NCBI RefSeq assembly: GCF_055900595.2
Contig: NZ_JBVWEU010000010.1
Direction: 5' to 3' (one strand)
From: a plasmid
Length of the DNA: 4,996 bases
Shown here piece after piece: positions 176-4,996 of the stretch (positions are counted from its first letter, which is position 1; each line of letters opens with the position of its first letter). The notes below the pieces were generated by a model. It was not told the origin of the DNA and did no database searches. It worked only from the letters and a program-made list of their open reading frames with translations. Position numbers and translations under genes: made by a program.

Positions 176-280
176 ACAGATTTGGTGGCAGCGGTCTTGT
201 ACACCCTGTTACCACGGTTCAGAAGTTCCCCAACTTACTGATCCTTCGAAAAACCACCTCCCCAGGTGGTTTTTTCGTTT
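176..280 (+). ncRNA. RNA I antisense copy-number control RNA (ColE1-type)
   Basis: Starts at ACAGA (cf. pMB1 ACAGTATTTGG) about 7 nt downstream of a TAAACT -10 box; ends at an intrinsic terminator (stem accacct 253-259 / aggtggt 264-270, then a T-run). Length ~105 nt and position relative to the RNA II promoter match ColE1 RNA I. Stem-loop sequences differ from pMB1. Confidence 0.75.
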
Positions 281-290
281 ACAGAGCAAA

Positions 291-319
291 AGATTACATC
301 CCGCAGGTTAGGATCTCAA
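291..319 (-). promoter_or_regulatory. RNA II primer promoter (-35 TTGAGA = rc of 314-319, -10 TAATCT = rc of 291-296)
   Basis: Reverse complement of ggatctcaagaagatcc..agatta gives TTGAGA - 17 bp - TAATCT, the same hexamers and spacing as the pMB1 RNA II promoter (ggatctcaagaagatcc is conserved). Confidence 0.6.
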
Positions 320-495
320 GAAGATCCTTTTAATCGGAATTCGACAACTCCAGATAAGTCATGGTGAGCCAGCCAACCCCTTCGACTGAATATCGTTCCA
401 AAAAAAGGCAGTCAGCTGAAAGAAACTAACAGTAGAACAATAATCTCTAGTACCCTGAATCTAAGCTAACAACAAAACTAGATTAGGAGTTATAG

Positions 496-1554
496 ATGGC
501 GATCTATGCCGTATGGAATAACAAGGGTGGTGTAGGGAAAAGTTACCTTACTTTTCAGTTAGCCTCTGAATATGCCAGACAGAACCCTACTAAAAAGGTC
601 CTGGTGGTTGACCTGTGCCCACAAGCGAACTCGTCCTCTATGTTACTTGGTGGAATGATAAATGGCGAAAACACACTAAACCAGATTCATTCAGCAATAC
701 AGAGAAAGACAATATCTGGATATATTGAGGATAGGATCAGAAGTCCATATATTCCTACCAACACTGGTTCTAGCTATGTAATAAATGTATCTACACACAA
801 TAGTAAAGTTCCAAATAATCTATATCTTGTCACTGGCGATGAACAATTAGAACTCCAAGCATCAAGAGTTGTTGGGGCATCATTTCCAGGTCCCCATGAT
901 GCATGGCGTACTGTTCACCTCTGGATTAATGATTTAATCAGTGACATTTGCAACTCATGGAATAATGAAGATAGCTGCGTATTCATTGACTGCAACCCTA
1001 GCTTCTCTATTTATACAGAGTTAGCTTTAACCGCAGCAGAGCGCCTTTTAATTCCTTTCTCTGCCGATGGTTCATCAAAGAGAGCAGTTAAGGCTGTACT
1101 TTCTTTAGTTTATGGTGAGCGTCGCCATCAGAATGAACCACAATCAGATTTCTATCTTAATAGCAATCGTTATTCTATGTCGCTACCACAAATATATATG
1201 TATGTTGGAAATAGATTAACGCAAATGAACAATTCATCTGCCAGTGCATTTAAGACGGTAGTAACCGAAATTGGTGATGAAATTTGGAAAGTATGGCAAA
1301 CAAAACCAAGTCTGTTTTGTATTCACCCAAATGGGAGCTCAACGCCAAATAATAAAAGATCTTTCAGGAATATGTTTCAGTATGAAGTAAATGATGCAAA
1401 CACAGCATCTGTCGTATCTGGAGCCTTAGGTATTCCAATCGCGACATTAACTGCAGGAAATAAAACTGTTTCAGGAAAAATAATAAAGGTTAATCAGACG
1501 CAGCTAGATAAACAAGTCCCCAACATTGTAGCTCTCGCTGGTATGATCGAATAA
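496..1554 (+). CDS. ParA/MinD/Soj-superfamily P-loop ATPase, 352 aa, with ~90-aa C-terminal extension of unknown function
   Basis: ATG preceded by AGGAG (484-488, 7-nt spacer). Deviant Walker A KGGVGKS at residues 10-16 (nt 523-543); ParA-type VLVVDLCPQANSS segment; Walker B-like CVFID (nt 976-990) followed by NPSFSIYTELALTAAERLLIPFSAD. Long uninterrupted ORF ending at a strong intrinsic terminator. AT-rich compared with the backbone. No symbol assigned because the specific family is not recognised. Confidence 0.85.
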   Translation: MAIYAVWNNKGGVGKSYLTFQLASEYARQNPTKKVLVVDLCPQANSSSMLLGGMINGENTLNQIHSAIQRKTISGYIEDRIRSPYIPTNTGSSYVINVSTHNSKVPNNLYLVTGDEQLELQASRVVGASFPGPHDAWRTVHLWINDLISDICNSWNNEDSCVFIDCNPSFSIYTELALTAAERLLIPFSADGSSKRAVKAVLSLVYGERRHQNEPQSDFYLNSNRYSMSLPQIYMYVGNRLTQMNNSSASAFKTVVTEIGDEIWKVWQTKPSLFCIHPNGSSTPNNKRSFRNMFQYEVNDANTASVVSGALGIPIATLTAGNKTVSGKIIKVNQTQLDKQVPNIVALAGMIE

Positions 1555-1556
1555 AA

Positions 1557-1590
1557 TAGCAAGGCCCTTAAAAGGGCCTTTTTTTATTTG
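1557..1590. terminator. Bidirectional intrinsic terminator between convergent genes
   Basis: Perfect 7-bp GC-rich stem aaggccc (1561-1567) / gggcctt (1574-1580) with 6-nt loop, followed on the plus strand by a T-run (1581-1585 and beyond) and flanked on the minus strand by a weaker U-rich stretch. Lies 3 nt after the ParA-like stop and just after the stop of the 1584-1841 minus-strand ORF. Confidence 0.7.
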
Positions 1591-1841
1591 TTTTTCTTTA
1601 CTGCTTGCAGCGCCCTGCCAGCACTAGAGGCCAACTCTTTGATTACATTATCTTTACTTTCAACAACCTCAGTAAGCAACTCGTTTTCGTTTTCCAGTTT
1701 ATTCAAAGCGTTCTGAGTATCTTCAATAGCATCATCATACCCTTCGGCATAGCCATCCATCCAACCAAGAGTATACGTTTGGTCCAAAAGATCAGCTTGC
1801 TTATCCTGCAGATCTTTATTCTGATTATTGTTAGAGCCCAT
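1584..1841 (-). CDS. Small acidic hypothetical protein, 85 aa (D/E/N/Q-rich, probably helical)
   Basis: ATG at 1841 preceded on the minus strand by TGAGGAAAAAAC (GAGG about 8 nt upstream); ends at the shared terminator. The plus-strand antisense ORF (1605-1901) starts with TTG, lacks an SD and is hydrophobic, so the minus-strand reading is preferred. No recognisable family. Confidence 0.6.
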   Translation of the reverse strand: MGSNNNQNKDLQDKQADLLDQTYTLGWMDGYAEGYDDAIEDTQNALNKLENENELLTEVVESKDNVIKELASSAGRALQAVKKNK

Positions 1842-2016
1842 GTTTTTTCCTCATTTGTTGGCGCATCTGAGTTTTCAAACCAGGAGGAATTCCATTTCTA
1901 AGTTTCTCACTTAGTCTGACTGGTGGTGTGTTTCCTGAGACTGGATTACAGTCAGCATCCACCCCGACATCTTTCTTTTTATAGTCGCCAATATTCCTAA
2001 CGTTATCTGTAGTCAT
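1831..2016 (-). CDS. Possible small basic protein, 61 aa, overlapping the start of the 85-aa ORF by 11 nt
   Basis: ATG at 2016 downstream of the AT-rich divergent promoter region; its last codons contain the SD of the next ORF (translational-coupling geometry). No convincing SD of its own and no recognisable motif; may be only a 5' leader. Confidence 0.3.
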   Translation of the reverse strand: MTTDNVRNIGDYKKKDVGVDADCNPVSGNTPPVRLSEKLRNGIPPGLKTQMRQQMRKKHGL

Positions 2017-2179
2017 AGAAAACCACGCCCATTGCTGTGAATAACCGAACTATAAACCAGAAAAAAAACGTACGGCTTATCATAACACTTGACACAAAAA
2101 AACACCGCTACTCTCCAAGCAAAAAACATAAAATTGGAAAAACAAAATCACAAGCACATGATAACAATAGATATTAATA

Positions 2180-2207
2180 TTTACTTACATTTAGTGAGTT
2201 TTATAAT
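2180..2207 (+). promoter_or_regulatory. Candidate sigma70 promoter for the 143-aa ORF (-35 TTTACT 2180-2185, -10 TATAAT 2202-2207)
   Basis: Exact TATAAT hexamer with a 16-bp spacer to a TTTACT -35-like hexamer, ~50 nt upstream of the ATG at 2259, inside a 240-bp AT-rich divergent intergenic region. Prediction by eye only. Confidence 0.35.
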
Positions 2208-2258
2208 TAGAAAAACAATGTAATTTAATAATCACAAACATTACCTAAGGACGAACTG

Positions 2259-2690
2259 ATGAAAATACCCGCGCATTTGAAGCATAAACCAATTATTCAA
2301 GTCGAAAATTACGACCGCATTGACGGCCCACATGCCGATGACACTGATGCTATGGGGCTATCTGTAGGTATTGCTCAATGGAACACTCCTGGATGGACTG
2401 AGCTTTCGGCAAAGGTTTGGCGAAACACAGGAGAAAAATGGTCAAGACAATCAGAAGAGCTGCCTCTTCACCGGGTAATCGACCTTGCAACTCTGATCTG
2501 TATCACCATGGACTACAGTAAAAATGGGCGACTTTCATCCAGTGATGATTTTCCCGTGACTCGCTCAACTGATAACCCTGAGCTAGCACATCACACTGAG
2601 TTTATGAAAAAAGAGTTAAAACAAAATAAAAGCAATCTTGATGTAAGCCTCAAACGCCTCTCGACTGAATTGAAGAGACTTGGCTATTAA
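2259..2690 (+). CDS. Hypothetical protein, 143 aa, unknown function
   Basis: ATG preceded by TAAGGA (2246-2251, 7-nt spacer); candidate promoter upstream; ORF ends 38 nt before the first Xer-like site. No recognisable catalytic motif; C-terminus is K/E/L-rich. Confidence 0.65.
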   Translation: MKIPAHLKHKPIIQVENYDRIDGPHADDTDAMGLSVGIAQWNTPGWTELSAKVWRNTGEKWSRQSEELPLHRVIDLATLICITMDYSKNGRLSSSDDFPVTRSTDNPELAHHTEFMKKELKQNKSNLDVSLKRLSTELKRLGY

Positions 2691-2727
2691 AACTAGCTTT
2701 AGAAATGTCTACCTACTTCACAGACGA

Positions 2728-2755
2728 ATTTACCATAACATCCGTTTTTCGAACC
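2728..2755 (-). other. XerC/XerD-type site-specific recombination site (cer/dif-like, 6-bp central region), site 1
   Basis: Minus-strand reading GGTTCGAAAAA-CGGATG-TTATGGTAAAT (11-6-11). The XerD arm is identical to the cer XerD arm TTATGGTAAAT; the XerC arm matches consensus GGTGCGnAnAA at about 7 of 11 positions. Shares an identical 20-bp core (aatttaccataacatccgtt, 2727-2746) with site 2. Confidence 0.6.
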
Positions 2756-2760
2756 ATAAT

Positions 2761-2778
2761 GGCAGGCTATAGCCTGCC
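2761..2778. repeat. Perfect 18-bp palindrome ggcaggctatagcctgcc
   Basis: The sequence equals its own reverse complement; lies between Xer-like site 1 and the stop codon (2784) of the 134-aa minus-strand ORF. No strong T-run, so a terminator role is uncertain; could be a protein-binding site. Confidence 0.5.
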
Positions 2779-2783
2779 GTAAT

Positions 2784-3188
2784 TCACCGGAAAAAATCAT
2801 CCACAGAGTCGCTCCACTCATGCCCGGAAAGAGACCACACCTTGTTTATAGGGGGAGGATAACCACTCCTGCAGTACCCGTTTTTTCCCACGAAATCGAA
2901 TGCCCCGTGCGGGTATCCATTGATCAGGAGTACGCACTTCTGACTGTCTTCTGACCAGCCAATTTTAACATCAGAAGGAATGTGACCGTCTGAAACGTCT
3001 TCGGCATTGTAGATGTGTACTGCGTCCATAATCGGGTTTCCCTCGACGGACTCATCGAGCGCATAGAAATACCCGGTCCGGCCATCGTCTTCGAACACGG
3101 CGGCCAGCATGCCCTCAGGAGCGAGGCTCTTTATAACCTGTTCCTCCCCGACAACGAGCTGGGCCTGTATCGTCACTAAAATGGTCAT
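2784..3188 (-). CDS. Hypothetical protein, 134 aa, GC-rich, cargo of the Xer-bounded cassette
   Basis: ATG at 3188 with AAGGAG about 10 nt upstream on the minus strand; the ORF fills almost all of the interval between the two Xer-like sites. No motif recognised. The overlapping 70-aa minus-strand ORF (3115-3327) is judged spurious. Confidence 0.6.
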   Translation of the reverse strand: MTILVTIQAQLVVGEEQVIKSLAPEGMLAAVFEDDGRTGYFYALDESVEGNPIMDAVHIYNAEDVSDGHIPSDVKIGWSEDSQKCVLLINGYPHGAFDFVGKNGYCRSGYPPPINKVWSLSGHEWSDSVDDFFR

Positions 3189-3245
3189 CAGGTCTGTTCT
3201 CCTTTCCTTGGTTGCTTCGGCAGCCAGCTTTCAGACAAGCGGATA

Positions 3246-3273
3246 ATTTACCATAACATCCGTTATCAGCATC
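3246..3273 (-). other. XerC/XerD-type site-specific recombination site (cer/dif-like), site 2; candidate plasmid multimer-resolution site
   Basis: Minus-strand reading GATGCTGATAA-CGGATG-TTATGGTAAAT; central region and XerD arm identical to site 1, XerC arm about 8 of 11 to consensus. About 300 bp of GC-rich sequence with no credible ORF lies on its XerC side (3274-3580), where cer-type accessory sequences would be expected. Confidence 0.6.
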
Positions 3274-3594
3274 GTCAGAAACGCGCTGAGGGCGTTTCTG
3301 ACGGGAAACCGGTAAAACAGGCAACAAACCACCCGAAAACCCGCCAGAAACGCGCAGGCTCTGTTTTTATGGCATGCATGAGTATGCACGCAAGTGCATA
3401 GCGCGAATATTCACGCCATTCAGACAGGGTAAGTCCTGTTTCCGGCGTTCTTCCCATCCGAAAACGGTGAACGGGGACGCAATTTATTGCGTGGCCGTGA
3501 AGCGTTGCCGGCGCAGCCGGAAAACCGGTTTTCAGCACGTTCAGGAATCGGGTTCGTCGACGGCCGGCAATCACGTTATGGCAAGTCGCCGGAC

Positions 3595-3784
3595 GACTCA
3601 CCACACGATTCACCGGCGACTCTGCACTAGAGTCGTACCTAGAGTCGCCGCGACTAAAAAACAACCAAACGGGGAGTCGGGTCTAGAGTCGGGTCGTTAT
3701 TAACTCATTGTTTTTATAGCCCTGAGTCGTTACCGACTCTATGACGACTCGCCGGGGACTCTATGACGAGTCGTCATAGAGTCG
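3595..3784. repeat. Array of 12 GAGTC/GACTC motifs (11 as the hexamer GAGTCG/CGACTC), including two pairs of tandem 12-bp repeats and nested inverted repeats
   Basis: Counted directly: GAGTC at 3630, 3642, 3674, 3686, 3724, 3768, 3779; GACTC at 3595, 3618, 3735, 3746, 3757. Tandem ctagagtcg at 3627 and 3639; tandem gagtcgggtc at 3674 and 3686; 13-bp gactctatgacga at 3735 and 3757 (direct) and 3771 (inverted). Chance expectation for a 5-mer on both strands in ~190 bp is under 1. Confidence 0.7.
3757..3783. repeat. 27-bp perfect palindrome gactctatgacgagtcgtcatagagtc (13-bp arms around a central G)
   Basis: Every position i pairs with position 28-i; sits at the end of the GAGTCG array, immediately before an AT-rich stretch (3786-3860). 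Confidence 0.75.
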
Positions 3785-3982
3785 GATCTATATAAATAAA
3801 ATTTAAAAAACGAAATCTCAGGAAAGTAAACTACTGATATTAAATACAAATCTGCAAAATTTTAATTTTGCGTGGGGTGTGGGTATTTTTAGTGGTGAGG
3901 AGCGTTCAGAGATCTGACTATTTTTGGGAAGGTTCAGGAACTCCCCGGGATGGCCGGAGAGGAAAACTGAAGCATGACAGGG

Positions 3983-4384
3983 TCAGGATTTTTTCCAGAA
4001 TTTCCACCATGGCGCCGGGGATTCAGTTAATTTTGCCTGGTGATTTTCAAGAAGGAGCATGGCCTGTTTCAGGCTGTCAATGTGCGAATCTTTGGACAAA
4101 AGTAAAGTGTTCAGGTGTTCAATCTCCTGTTTCAGATGACGAATCACCTGTTCACACTGGTCAACAGAGGCTGTATCGCGCTGTTCAGAGACCTGTCCAG
4201 AATGGTGTTCACCCTTCAGTTGTTCAAAGGGACCAAAGACACGTAAAAGCTCTGAAGTATCTACCATTTTTGCATTGCGCTCACCGCTACAGGTGGACAG
4301 GTCACCTGCTTTAATTAACCTGTGCAGTGTTGTTCTACTCTTACCCGTCAGTCGGGCTGCCTCACTAATAGACACTCTGGCCAT
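3983..4384 (-). CDS. HTH DNA-binding protein (excisionase/MerR-like HTH_17-type N-terminus) with C-terminal coiled-coil-like region, 133 aa
   Basis: N-terminus SISEAARLTGKSRTTLHRLIKAGDLS fits the excisionase-family HTH pattern (EAAxLxGxSxxTxxRLIxxGxL); the C-terminal half is heptad-like and Q/E/L-rich. Start ATG overlaps the rop stop (TGATG at 4382-4386), implying co-transcription and translational coupling. Its antisense 148-aa ORF is Arg-rich and judged spurious. Confidence 0.7.
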   Translation of the reverse strand: MARVSISEAARLTGKSRTTLHRLIKAGDLSTCSGERNAKMVDTSELLRVFGPFEQLKGEHHSGQVSEQRDTASVDQCEQVIRHLKQEIEHLNTLLLSKDSHIDSLKQAMLLLENHQAKLTESPAPWWKFWKKS

Positions 4385-4575
4385 CAGTTACCATCCTGTA
4401 ATGCATCCAGTCTCGAGGACAGTGTACGGAAAAGATGCTCCGCATCATCGTGGAGTTTCTCACAAAGGTCGGCCTCGACATCAAGATCAAGCTCGTTAAG
4501 CTTCTCCAGCAGGAGCAGAGATTGATGCTGGATGAATTTAGCCATGTTCAGCGCTGTTTTCTGTTGTTTCGTCAT
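4384..4575 (-). CDS. rop: Rop/Rom RNA I-RNA II interaction modulator, 63 aa
   Basis: Translation MTKQQKTALNMAKFIQHQSLLLLEKLNELDLDVEADLCEKLHDDAEHLFRTL... closely matches ColE1/pMB1 Rop (MTKQEKTALNMARFIRSQTLTLLEKLNELDADEQADICESLHD..., recalled from memory), with identical length of 63 aa; located just downstream of the origin in replication direction. Confidence 0.9.
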   Translation of the reverse strand: MTKQQKTALNMAKFIQHQSLLLLEKLNELDLDVEADLCEKLHDDAEHLFRTLSSRLDALQDGN

Positions 4576-4599
4576 AAGAGGCCTCAGAGCGTCAGTGCT

Positions 4600-4996
4600 C
4601 AGTGTAGGGATGTTCTCTCTTCCGCTTCCTCGCTCACTGACTCGCTACGCTCGGTCGTTCGGCTGCGGCGAGCGGCAGGAGCATACGTTATGAAAGCTCG
4701 AGAAAACCGAGCGATCATGTAATTAAGCAAAGGGCAACGAAAGGCCGCGCCGCTGGCGTTTTTCCATAGGCTCCGCCCCCCTGACGAGCATCACAAAAAT
4801 TGACGCTCAAGTCAGAGGTGGCGAAACCCGACAGGACTATAAAGATACCAGGCGTTTCCCCCTGGAAGCTCCCTCGTGCGCTCTCCTGTTCCGACCCTGC
4901 CGTTTACCGGTGTCATTCCGCTGTTATGGCCGCGTTTGTCTCATTCCACGCCTGACACTCAGTTCCGGGTAGGCAGTTCGCTCCAAGCTGGACTGT
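4600..4996. other. ColE1-type origin of replication region (RNA II 3' domain, primer RNA-DNA transition, conserved origin-proximal hairpin region); continues at 1-330
   Basis: Near-identity by eye to pMB1 over cttccgcttcctcgctcactgactcgct.cgctcggtcgttcggctgcggcgagcgg and ggccgcg..gctggcgtttttccataggctccgcccccctgacgagcatcacaaaaat.gacgctcaagtcagaggtggcgaaacccgacaggactataaagataccaggcgtttccccctggaagctccctcgtgcgctctcctgttccgaccctgcc. The RNA-DNA switch is expected near 4735-4745 (inference, not mapped). Confidence 0.85.
4738..4996 (-). ncRNA. RNA II replication primer precursor, 3' portion up to the origin
   Basis: Continuation of the minus-strand RNA II from position 1 across the circular junction; the 3' boundary is approximate and placed by analogy with pMB1, where the primer ends near the ggccgcg..gctggcgttttt motif. 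Confidence 0.65.

Follow-up and report, generated by a model that had tools for sequence, protein, structure and literature searches.

A 518-bp one-gene cassette carrying DUF2251 between two XerC/XerD recombination cores at the dimer-resolution site of small enterobacterial plasmids

We identified a 518-bp DNA cassette with a single gene that sits between two direct XerC/XerD recombination cores at the dimer-resolution site of a small ColE1-type plasmid, and of at least seven other plasmid backbones. The cargo is a widely conserved and strongly constrained member of DUF2251, a family with no known function. The window, i.e. the whole stretch of 4,996 nucleotides that was analysed, is essentially one complete ColRNAI plasmid, as it matches a set of 4,991-bp plasmids from Klebsiella, E. 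coli and Enterobacter over its full length at about 99.3% identity. Besides the DUF2251 gene, the plasmid encodes a Rop protein, an HTH protein, a ParA-family ATPase and a DUF6530 protein. A preliminary description, based on the sequence alone, had reported a GC-rich 134-aa ORF as the only gene of a Xer-bounded interval and read it as independently acquired cargo. The observation itself proved correct, and the comparison with other plasmids supports the reading as cassette cargo, with two corrections and with any adaptive role of the cargo remaining hypothetical. The coordinates of the features are collected in Table 1.

Table 1. Features of the cassette and its surroundings (window positions; the sequences of the Xer cores are given as XerC arm-centre-XerD arm on the minus strand)
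Position	Strand	Feature	Description
177-278		RNAI	
2727-2746 and 3245-3264		Exact 20-bp direct repeat	AATTTACCATAACATCCGTT; the copies lie 518 bp apart
2728-2755	-	Inner Xer core (site A)	GGTTCGAAAAA-CGGATG-TTATGGTAAAT; XerD arm 2728-2738, 6-bp centre 2739-2744, weak cassette-borne XerC-type arm 2745-2755; no accessory sequences next to the XerC arm
2761-2778	-	Terminator-like perfect hairpin, part of the cassette	GGCAGGCTATAGCCTGCC, just after the stop codon; MFE -19.4 kcal/mol, fold z = -2.8
2784-3188	-	DUF2251 gene	ATG to stop, 134 aa, 14.8 kDa, pI 4.4
3189-3245	-	57-bp leader, part of the cassette	RBS GGAAAGGAG at 3199-3207; homologous to the 5' region of chromosomal and large-plasmid copies
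3246-3273	-	Outer Xer core (site B), the plasmid's mwr/cer-type site	GATGCTGATAA-CGGATG-TTATGGTAAAT; XerD arm 3246-3256, centre 3257-3262, backbone XerC arm 3263-3273
3274-3507	-	Accessory sequences of the backbone's dimer-resolution site	Not part of the cassette; window 3246-3507 is 90% identical over 263 bp to the region next to mwr in pJHCMW1
2747-3264		518-bp insertion/deletion as placed by alignment	Exact position ambiguous within the 20-bp repeat
2745-3262		Mobile unit if exchange is at the XerC-arm/centre boundary	

The ORF is a full-length member of the Pfam family DUF2251 (PF10008), with an E-value of 8.8e-35 over residues 24-111 (model positions 6-93 of 94), all 120 homologues listed carry PF10008, and in near-identical 4,991-bp plasmids the gene is annotated as a DUF2251 protein (WP_008321396.1). 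The statement of the preliminary description that no motif could be recognised was therefore wrong. The gene is under strong purifying selection, with dN/dS values of 0.03-0.08 against eight homologues, including 0.078 between two cassette variants. The hairpin behind the stop codon was found as a terminator-like site on the minus strand; it is conserved in all cassette copies and, in diverged form, in homologues outside cassettes. No other conserved ORF lies in the interval. By simple calculation, an exact 20-mer repeat such as the one bracketing the gene is expected about 1e-5 times by chance in 5 kb, and each copy is part of a 28-bp core with an 11-bp XerC-type arm, a 6-bp centre and the XerD arm. 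The second correction regards composition. The GC values are numerically right (52% for the ORF, 30% for the adjacent AT-rich stretch and 39% for the parA-DUF6530 block), but the cassette (51%) matches the replication/cer half of the plasmid (50.6%), so that the AT-rich block is the compositional outlier and the argument for independent acquisition from base composition is weak.

Three lines of comparison indicate that the interval is a cassette. First, natural empty sites exist. Sister plasmids of 4,473 bp, such as L001, lack exactly these 518 bp and join window position 2746 directly to 3265, with 20 shared bases. They carry a single hybrid core, GATGCTGATAA-CGGATG-TTATGGTAAAT, followed by the outer flank of site A, and show no differences in the 236 bp to the left and the 552 bp to the right of the indel. 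We considered a mosaic boundary at the Xer core between the window and the empty plasmid, but rejected it because the differences cluster at 3817-4901 and not at the core. Exact empty-site versions of two further occupied backbones (L005 and L012) were not found in the plasmid collection, in which only close relatives were present. Second, the same unit (97-100% identical) lies with identical limits in at least eight different backbones, belonging to four replicon clusters, whose other cargo includes restriction-modification, NERD, toxin-antitoxin, mobilisation and GES-24 genes. On one side, the order is backbone accessory region, backbone XerC arm (GGTGCnnnCAA, different in each backbone), CAGATG, TTATGGTAAAT and cassette; on the other side it is cassette hairpin, GGTTCGAACAA, CGGATG, TTATGGTAAAT and a different backbone flank. 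This inner core follows the cassette in seven backbones other than the window. Absence or degradation of the ORF in related cassettes had been named beforehand as grounds for refutation, but the ORF is intact in every copy examined (12 loci: the window plus L002, L005 and L007-L016).

Third, the outer core is an mwr-type site. The experimentally studied mwr core (PMC2699498), read directly from pJHCMW1, is GGTGCACGCAA-CAGATG-TTATGGTAAAT. The XerD arm of site B is identical to it and the centre differs at 1 of 6 positions, whereas the XerC arm matches the mwr arm at only 6 of 11 positions and is the weakest element. The accessory sequences next to this arm, about 180 bp in sites of the cer/mwr type, are assigned on the overall similarity to pJHCMW1 rather than on an ArgR box; their role has been described (PMC2699498; PMC5357621). 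Site A is instead a bare 28-bp core, since its XerC-type arm abuts the hairpin and the 3' end of the ORF. Given that the unit contains no recombinase or transposase gene and no terminal inverted repeats, host XerCD is the obvious agent of movement, although this is inferred from the anatomy of the sites.

The 518-bp difference could alternatively have arisen by RecA-dependent or replication-slippage deletion or duplication between two chance 20-bp repeats, with incidental Xer-like sequences. A repeat of this length could support rare homologous or slipped deletion, and a mismatch-tolerant search for the XerD arm alone is not statistically distinctive. Nonetheless, we regard this as very unlikely. 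Deletion cannot explain the insertion of the identical unit, with identical ends, next to seven different backbone XerC arms and eight different outer flanks, nor can it explain the tandem array and the analogous pJHCMW1 cassette described below. Moreover, the repeats are full 28-bp XerC/centre/XerD cores, one of which is an mwr orthologue.

The DUF2251 unit is not alone. In L015, a Leclercia plasmid, it is the second member of a tandem array that reads backbone core, a 552-bp unit encoding a 69-aa BhsA/YdgH-like secreted protein, core, DUF2251 cassette, core and then a PH-domain module. In pJHCMW1 a different small ORF follows mwr and ends with a hairpin and CCGGCGGACAA-CGGATG-TTATGGTAAAT, which is the same build, interrupted by Tn1331. 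A restriction-modification module also starts right at a XerD arm (plasmid loci L011 and L118). Hundreds of plasmids share the accessory region plus core and lose homology within 14 nt after the XerD arm. A recent survey of enterobacterial Xer sites states that all such sites on small plasmids have accessory sequences and does not mention cassettes; the bare inner cores seen here fall outside that description.

Where the strands exchange is favoured, but not settled, by two near-isogenic comparisons. In seven backbones the centre next to the backbone XerC arm is CAGATG and the inner centre is CGGATG. An unoccupied plasmid (L119) with the same accessory region and XerC arm as the occupied L012 has GGTGCGCCCAA-CGGATG where L012 has GGTGCGCCCAA-CAGATG, and L118 has CGGATG and the XerD arm joined to the same flank as the inner site of L011. 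Both observations fit exchange at the XerC-arm/centre boundary, with the centre travelling with the XerD arm, as in the XerC-only mode of cer and mwr (PMC5357621). However, resident cores are polymorphic at the one centre position that differs (L120 has CAGATG) and in the window both centres are CGGATG, so the exchange point is not fixed by the data.

By inference, the XerD arm of the cassette descends from a conserved motif upstream of copies that are not in cassettes. Such homologues (83-85% DNA identity) occur on more than 750 large Klebsiella plasmids and on chromosomal contigs of Enterobacter, Raoultella, Kluyvera and Klebsiella. At the position of the centre plus XerD arm they conserve GGGATG-TTATGGTAGAT, a 10 of 11 match to the arm. 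These copies are themselves gene-sized islands of homology, and two island edges coincide with the ends of the cassette: L039 at -71 to -74 from the ATG and L003 at +30 to +34 after the stop. The motif reads TG-n-TATGGT (TG-T-TATGGT in the centre plus XerD arm of site B), or TG-n-TATAGT in one chromosome, which is a possible extended -10 box. We infer that a promoter element resembling a XerD half-site was co-opted as the recombination arm and probably still drives the gene, which would then carry its promoter with it. Against this, a consensus scan found no sigma-70 promoter and the -35 region is poor. A separate, 84%-identical allele with an unrelated leader sits about 60 bp downstream of a canonical core on a Cronobacter colicin plasmid, and the association of DUF2251 with Xer sites is therefore recurrent.

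Taken together, we explain the ORF as a real, functional DUF2251 gene and the only cargo of a mobile cassette that is inserted at the plasmid's mwr/cer-type site and, in gene orientation, is made up of a 6-bp centre plus XerD arm, leader, ORF, terminator-like hairpin and its own weak XerC-type arm. Host XerC/XerD would recombine the core of the cassette with a resident plasmid core, either from an excised 518-bp circle or through plasmid cointegrate formation at one core and resolution at the other. The result would be a cassette flanked by two direct hybrid cores, and the reverse reaction would restore the single-core 4,473-bp plasmid. The empty and occupied forms, the shared limits across backbones, the mwr-type anatomy, the tandem array, and the conservation and constraint of the gene come directly from our sequence comparisons, whereas XerC/XerD binding and strand exchange, the route of movement, the built-in promoter and its origin, and any activity of the protein are inferred. 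We hold the cassette and its mobility with good confidence, which does not extend to the function. By cer/mwr rules recombination with the outer site should be inefficient, because the inner core has no accessory sequences and its XerC-type arm matches the mwr arm at only 6-7 of 11 positions, and no excised circle was observed.

These points leave room for a second reading, in which the arrangement is a fossil: assembled and spread by past Xer-mediated cointegration and resolution, but today effectively immobile because the inner core lacks accessory sequences, with the 4,473-bp and 4,991-bp forms being old sister lineages and not interconverting states. Indeed, by cer/mwr rules both partners need accessory sequences (PMC5357621), the window and L001 differ at 65 positions in 3817-4901 and are thus not very recent derivatives of one another, and non-cassette copies keep only a degenerate half-site. 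On the other hand, the cassette is 99-100% identical across many backbones and genera, which implies recent spread, and the flanks of the empty and occupied forms are identical for hundreds of bases. Cores with 6-bp centres can in principle recombine without accessory factors. We consider the fossil reading unlikely.

The DUF2251 protein has no signal peptide or membrane segment evident in its sequence. AlphaFold predicts, with confidence (pLDDT 90 and 95), nine beta strands plus a C-terminal helix. Searches of NCBIfam, PADLOC and PHROGs gave nothing for the ORF, sequence searches of the PDB with a 21-sequence and a 77-sequence profile gave nothing meaningful, no solved structure matches the fold specifically, and AFDB50 returned only other DUF2251 proteins, from many phyla. 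In a deep search the family has 713 representative clusters (at 50% identity). Across divergent members the near-invariant residues are the FEDDG-x-TGYFY hairpin, D55, Y60, W78, D98-F99, C106-R107 and P111. A His/His/Cys/His metal site was suggested by the 21-sequence alignment, but we rejected it as a universal feature because H58, H94 and H123 are replaceable across 76 divergent members; the conserved residues look like an acidic and aromatic binding surface more than a metal centre. An internal two-blade repeat, suggested by the resemblance of the FEDDG and WSEDS motifs, was not supported by profile-profile comparison of the two halves (probability about 0). We found no experimental literature on the family. 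The single functional statement attached to 'DUF2251' concerns YebY (PMC11923076), which does not match this family by sequence, and the label is likely a slip, given that no solved structure, including YebY, matches the family.

Genomic context is mostly uninformative. The gene is always solitary, 294 flanking ORFs from 80 genomes fall into 254 clusters without a recurrent neighbour, Pfam scans of 133 immediate neighbours show no enrichment, and N-terminal extensions of longer family members are uninformative. Within Enterobacterales, however, copies repeatedly lie beside toxin loci: after Hcp-pyocin-S/DNase toxins with Im immunity arrays in Citrobacter, on a DNase-colicin plasmid in Cronobacter, 65 bp after a Tle1-like ORF in a type VI secretion cluster, and near bacteriocin, immunity and toxin-antitoxin genes on large plasmids. 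Our best guess, which is tentative, is that DUF2251 is a cytoplasmic acidic binding protein that would neutralise an incoming basic toxin, such as a nuclease bacteriocin or a type VI effector, with the multicopy plasmid supplying dosage. The low pI and the conserved acidic/aromatic patch would fit this view. Against it stand the lack of a recurrent neighbour, of Pfam enrichment among the immediate neighbours and of any PADLOC, PHROG or NCBIfam hit; moreover, the very strong cross-phylum conservation is unusual for immunity proteins, and bacteriocin and T6SS loci accumulate mobile genes anyway.

Alternatively, and only slightly less plausibly, DUF2251 could be a self-contained small-molecule-binding or enzymatic protein, for example one that sequesters or modifies a cationic antibiotic or metabolite. 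Its solitary occurrence, cross-phylum conservation with fixed length, conserved acidic plus aromatic cluster, Cys-Arg pair, and small, acidic and apparently cytoplasmic nature would agree with this. Against it, there is no similarity to any enzyme or binding-protein family by sequence or fold, the candidate His ligands are not universally conserved and no metabolic operon context was found. Improbable, finally, is that the cargo is an anti-restriction or anti-defence factor (an acidic DNA mimic) helping incoming plasmids, or simply a passenger with no benefit to host or plasmid. The protein is acidic, frequent on plasmids and, in Xenorhabdus, lies in an island with antirestriction genes. However, besides the lack of PADLOC and PHROG hits there is no fold resemblance to known DNA mimics, a pure passenger would not show dN/dS below 0.1 across plasmid and chromosomal copies, and chromosomal copies are widespread in genomes and are not on plasmids.

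How Xer-bounded modules move is still largely inferred from sequence comparison, mostly in Acinetobacter. The present cassette is a minimal one-gene example with natural empty and occupied sites, in hosts (E. coli, Klebsiella) whose XerCD, PepA, ArgR and FtsK genetics are well developed and with one partner site (mwr) already characterised experimentally, so that excision, capture, strand-exchange order and the need for accessory sequences are open to direct testing. It also suggests that small "cryptic" ColE1-type plasmids exchange single genes at their dimer-resolution site, a route that could also carry resistance genes. DUF2251 becomes an attractive uncharacterised target, as the family spans many phyla, is under very strong purifying selection, has a confident but unmatched predicted fold and travels on multicopy plasmids of clinical Klebsiella. 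More speculatively, and possible rather than probable, enterobacterial ColE1-type plasmids might use this site as an integron-like platform that captures, stacks and releases promoter-carrying single-gene cassettes (DUF2251, a BhsA-like gene, the pJHCMW1 ORF and probably others), each ending in a hairpin and a weak private XerC arm. In this view the DUF2251 cassette was born when a pre-existing -10 motif resembling a XerD half-site was co-opted, and the cargo would be a broadly protective orphan immunity-type protein amplified by plasmid copy number.

Among known systems, recombination at cer/Xer sites has already been proposed to shuffle segments of ColE1-like plasmids (PMC8683028; PMC6764390). 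The cases of the qnrB19 plasmids (Tran 2012) and of pECL18/pKPN2 (Zakharova 2002) reportedly concern exchange of large backbone segments between a Xer site and oriT, whereas here a discrete single-gene cassette has its own second core, natural empty sites and tandem arrays; we found no description of this in the literature examined, which did not extend to two key papers. The pdif modules of Acinetobacter plasmids are likewise gene-sized to few-gene units bounded by XerC/XerD cores, encode no recombinase, occur in different plasmid contexts and are thought to move using host XerCD (PMC7399989; PMC6449649; PMC9947245). pdif modules are bounded by cores in inverted orientation. Here the two cores are direct repeats on the same strand, as expected from single-site integration, the host is Enterobacteriaceae, the target is a ColE1-type dimer-resolution site with accessory sequences, and the inner core has a cassette-specific weak XerC arm. 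IMEX (integrative mobile elements exploiting Xer), especially those of the VGJ-phage type, are circular elements with one dif-like site that integrate using host XerCD and end up flanked by two direct cores that allow excision (PMC5357621), and the empty and occupied forms of our cassette show this flanking arrangement. IMEX, however, integrate at chromosomal dif and are phages or islands of kilobases to tens of kilobases, while the 518-bp unit targets plasmid mwr/cer-type cores and all its 27 matching places in complete E. coli genomes are on plasmids. Finally, like integron gene cassettes, the unit is a single promoter-proximal gene with one recombination site, inserted at a fixed platform site and able to form tandem arrays. 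It has no attC, attI or IntI, and the 5-kb plasmid has no integrase gene; its boundaries are XerCD cores, its inferred recombinase is chromosomal and it appears to carry its own -10 element.

The region between the cer-type accessory region and the HTH gene holds a dense array of GAGTCG/CGACTC hexamers. Of the 12 copies in the window, 11 lie here, and 0 of 200 shuffles reached 12. The array includes a perfect 19-nt inverted repeat and looks like an iteron, centromere or operator array for the HTH or the ParA-family protein. Further along, in the HTH-rop-RNAII region, we found all but three of the 68 differences between the window and the empty-site plasmid L001, while the rest of the two sequences is nearly identical. 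This suggests recombination or faster divergence in the replication-control segment. On the other side of the cassette, an AT-rich block (39% GC, against 51% for the rest) encodes a 352-aa ParA-family ATPase, two small minus-strand ORFs (85 and 61 aa) and a DUF6530 protein. This block ends exactly at the inner Xer core and is the real compositional outlier of the plasmid, and it may itself be an acquired module of unknown function.

Coordinates of features in the window and in the compared plasmids
Record	Position	Feature
Window	300-2726	AT-rich block
Window	3594-3784	GAGTCG/CGACTC hexamer array
Window	3733-3751 / 3767-3785	perfect 19-nt inverted repeat
Window	3817-4901	cluster of differences from L001
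L015 (NZ_CP152491.1)	7957-9027	two Xer cassettes in tandem
L011 (NZ_CP110101.1)	839 onward	type II restriction-modification module after a XerD arm
L118 (NZ_AP027820.1)	about 4467	type II restriction-modification module after a XerD arm
L132 (pJHCMW1)	about 458-485 and 71-370	second Xer-like core, preceded by a hairpin and a 100-aa ORF

Four records labelled Enterococcus faecium (NZ_CP059753.1, NZ_CP072739.1, NZ_CP072728.1 and NZ_CP061825.1) carry this enterobacterial ColRNAI plasmid or fragments of it, most likely through contamination or mislabelling. Additionally, shorter 'complete' plasmids of 2,574, 3,264, 3,518 and 3,724 bp (records L007-L009 and H102) consist of sub-segments of the 4,991-bp plasmid, and some of them lack an annotated replication region. 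These could be assembly artefacts or deletion derivatives. In the literature, one paper calls E. coli YebY a member of DUF2251 (PMC11923076). No solved structure, including YebY, matches this family by sequence, and the label is therefore probably a slip for another DUF number.

DUF2251 genes also occur in other settings. In Pseudomonas cichorii (loci L025-L028) the Pseudomonas orthologue lies next to variable sets of small genes (DUF1963, cyclophilin-like 2) that differ between strains, and the region looks like a variable island. In Cronobacter, contigs of about 4.7-5 kb (L121-L123) represent a ColE-type plasmid with a pyocin-S/colicin DNase gene, immunity and lysis genes and a LexA-box-like promoter. 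An 84%-identical DUF2251 allele sits between the single Xer core of this plasmid and the colicin operon, and no second core was found there.

Xer cores border further units in the plasmids that we compared. In L015, two Xer cassettes are arranged in tandem between three direct cores: a 552-bp unit encoding a 69-aa BhsA/YdgH-like secreted protein, followed by the DUF2251 cassette. This record holds five cores in all and a duplicated integrase segment. In L011 and L118, two different backbones with different XerC arms, a type II restriction-modification module (HTH, endonuclease, methyltransferase) begins immediately after a XerD arm, which suggests that this module is also exchanged at Xer cores. 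Finally, the reference mwr plasmid pJHCMW1 has a second Xer-like core, CCGGCGGACAA-CGGATG-TTATGGTAAAT. Together with mwr, this core and the hairpin and ORF that precede it form a cassette of the same build as the DUF2251 unit, and Tn1331 splits this pJHCMW1 cassette 19 bp after the mwr XerD arm.
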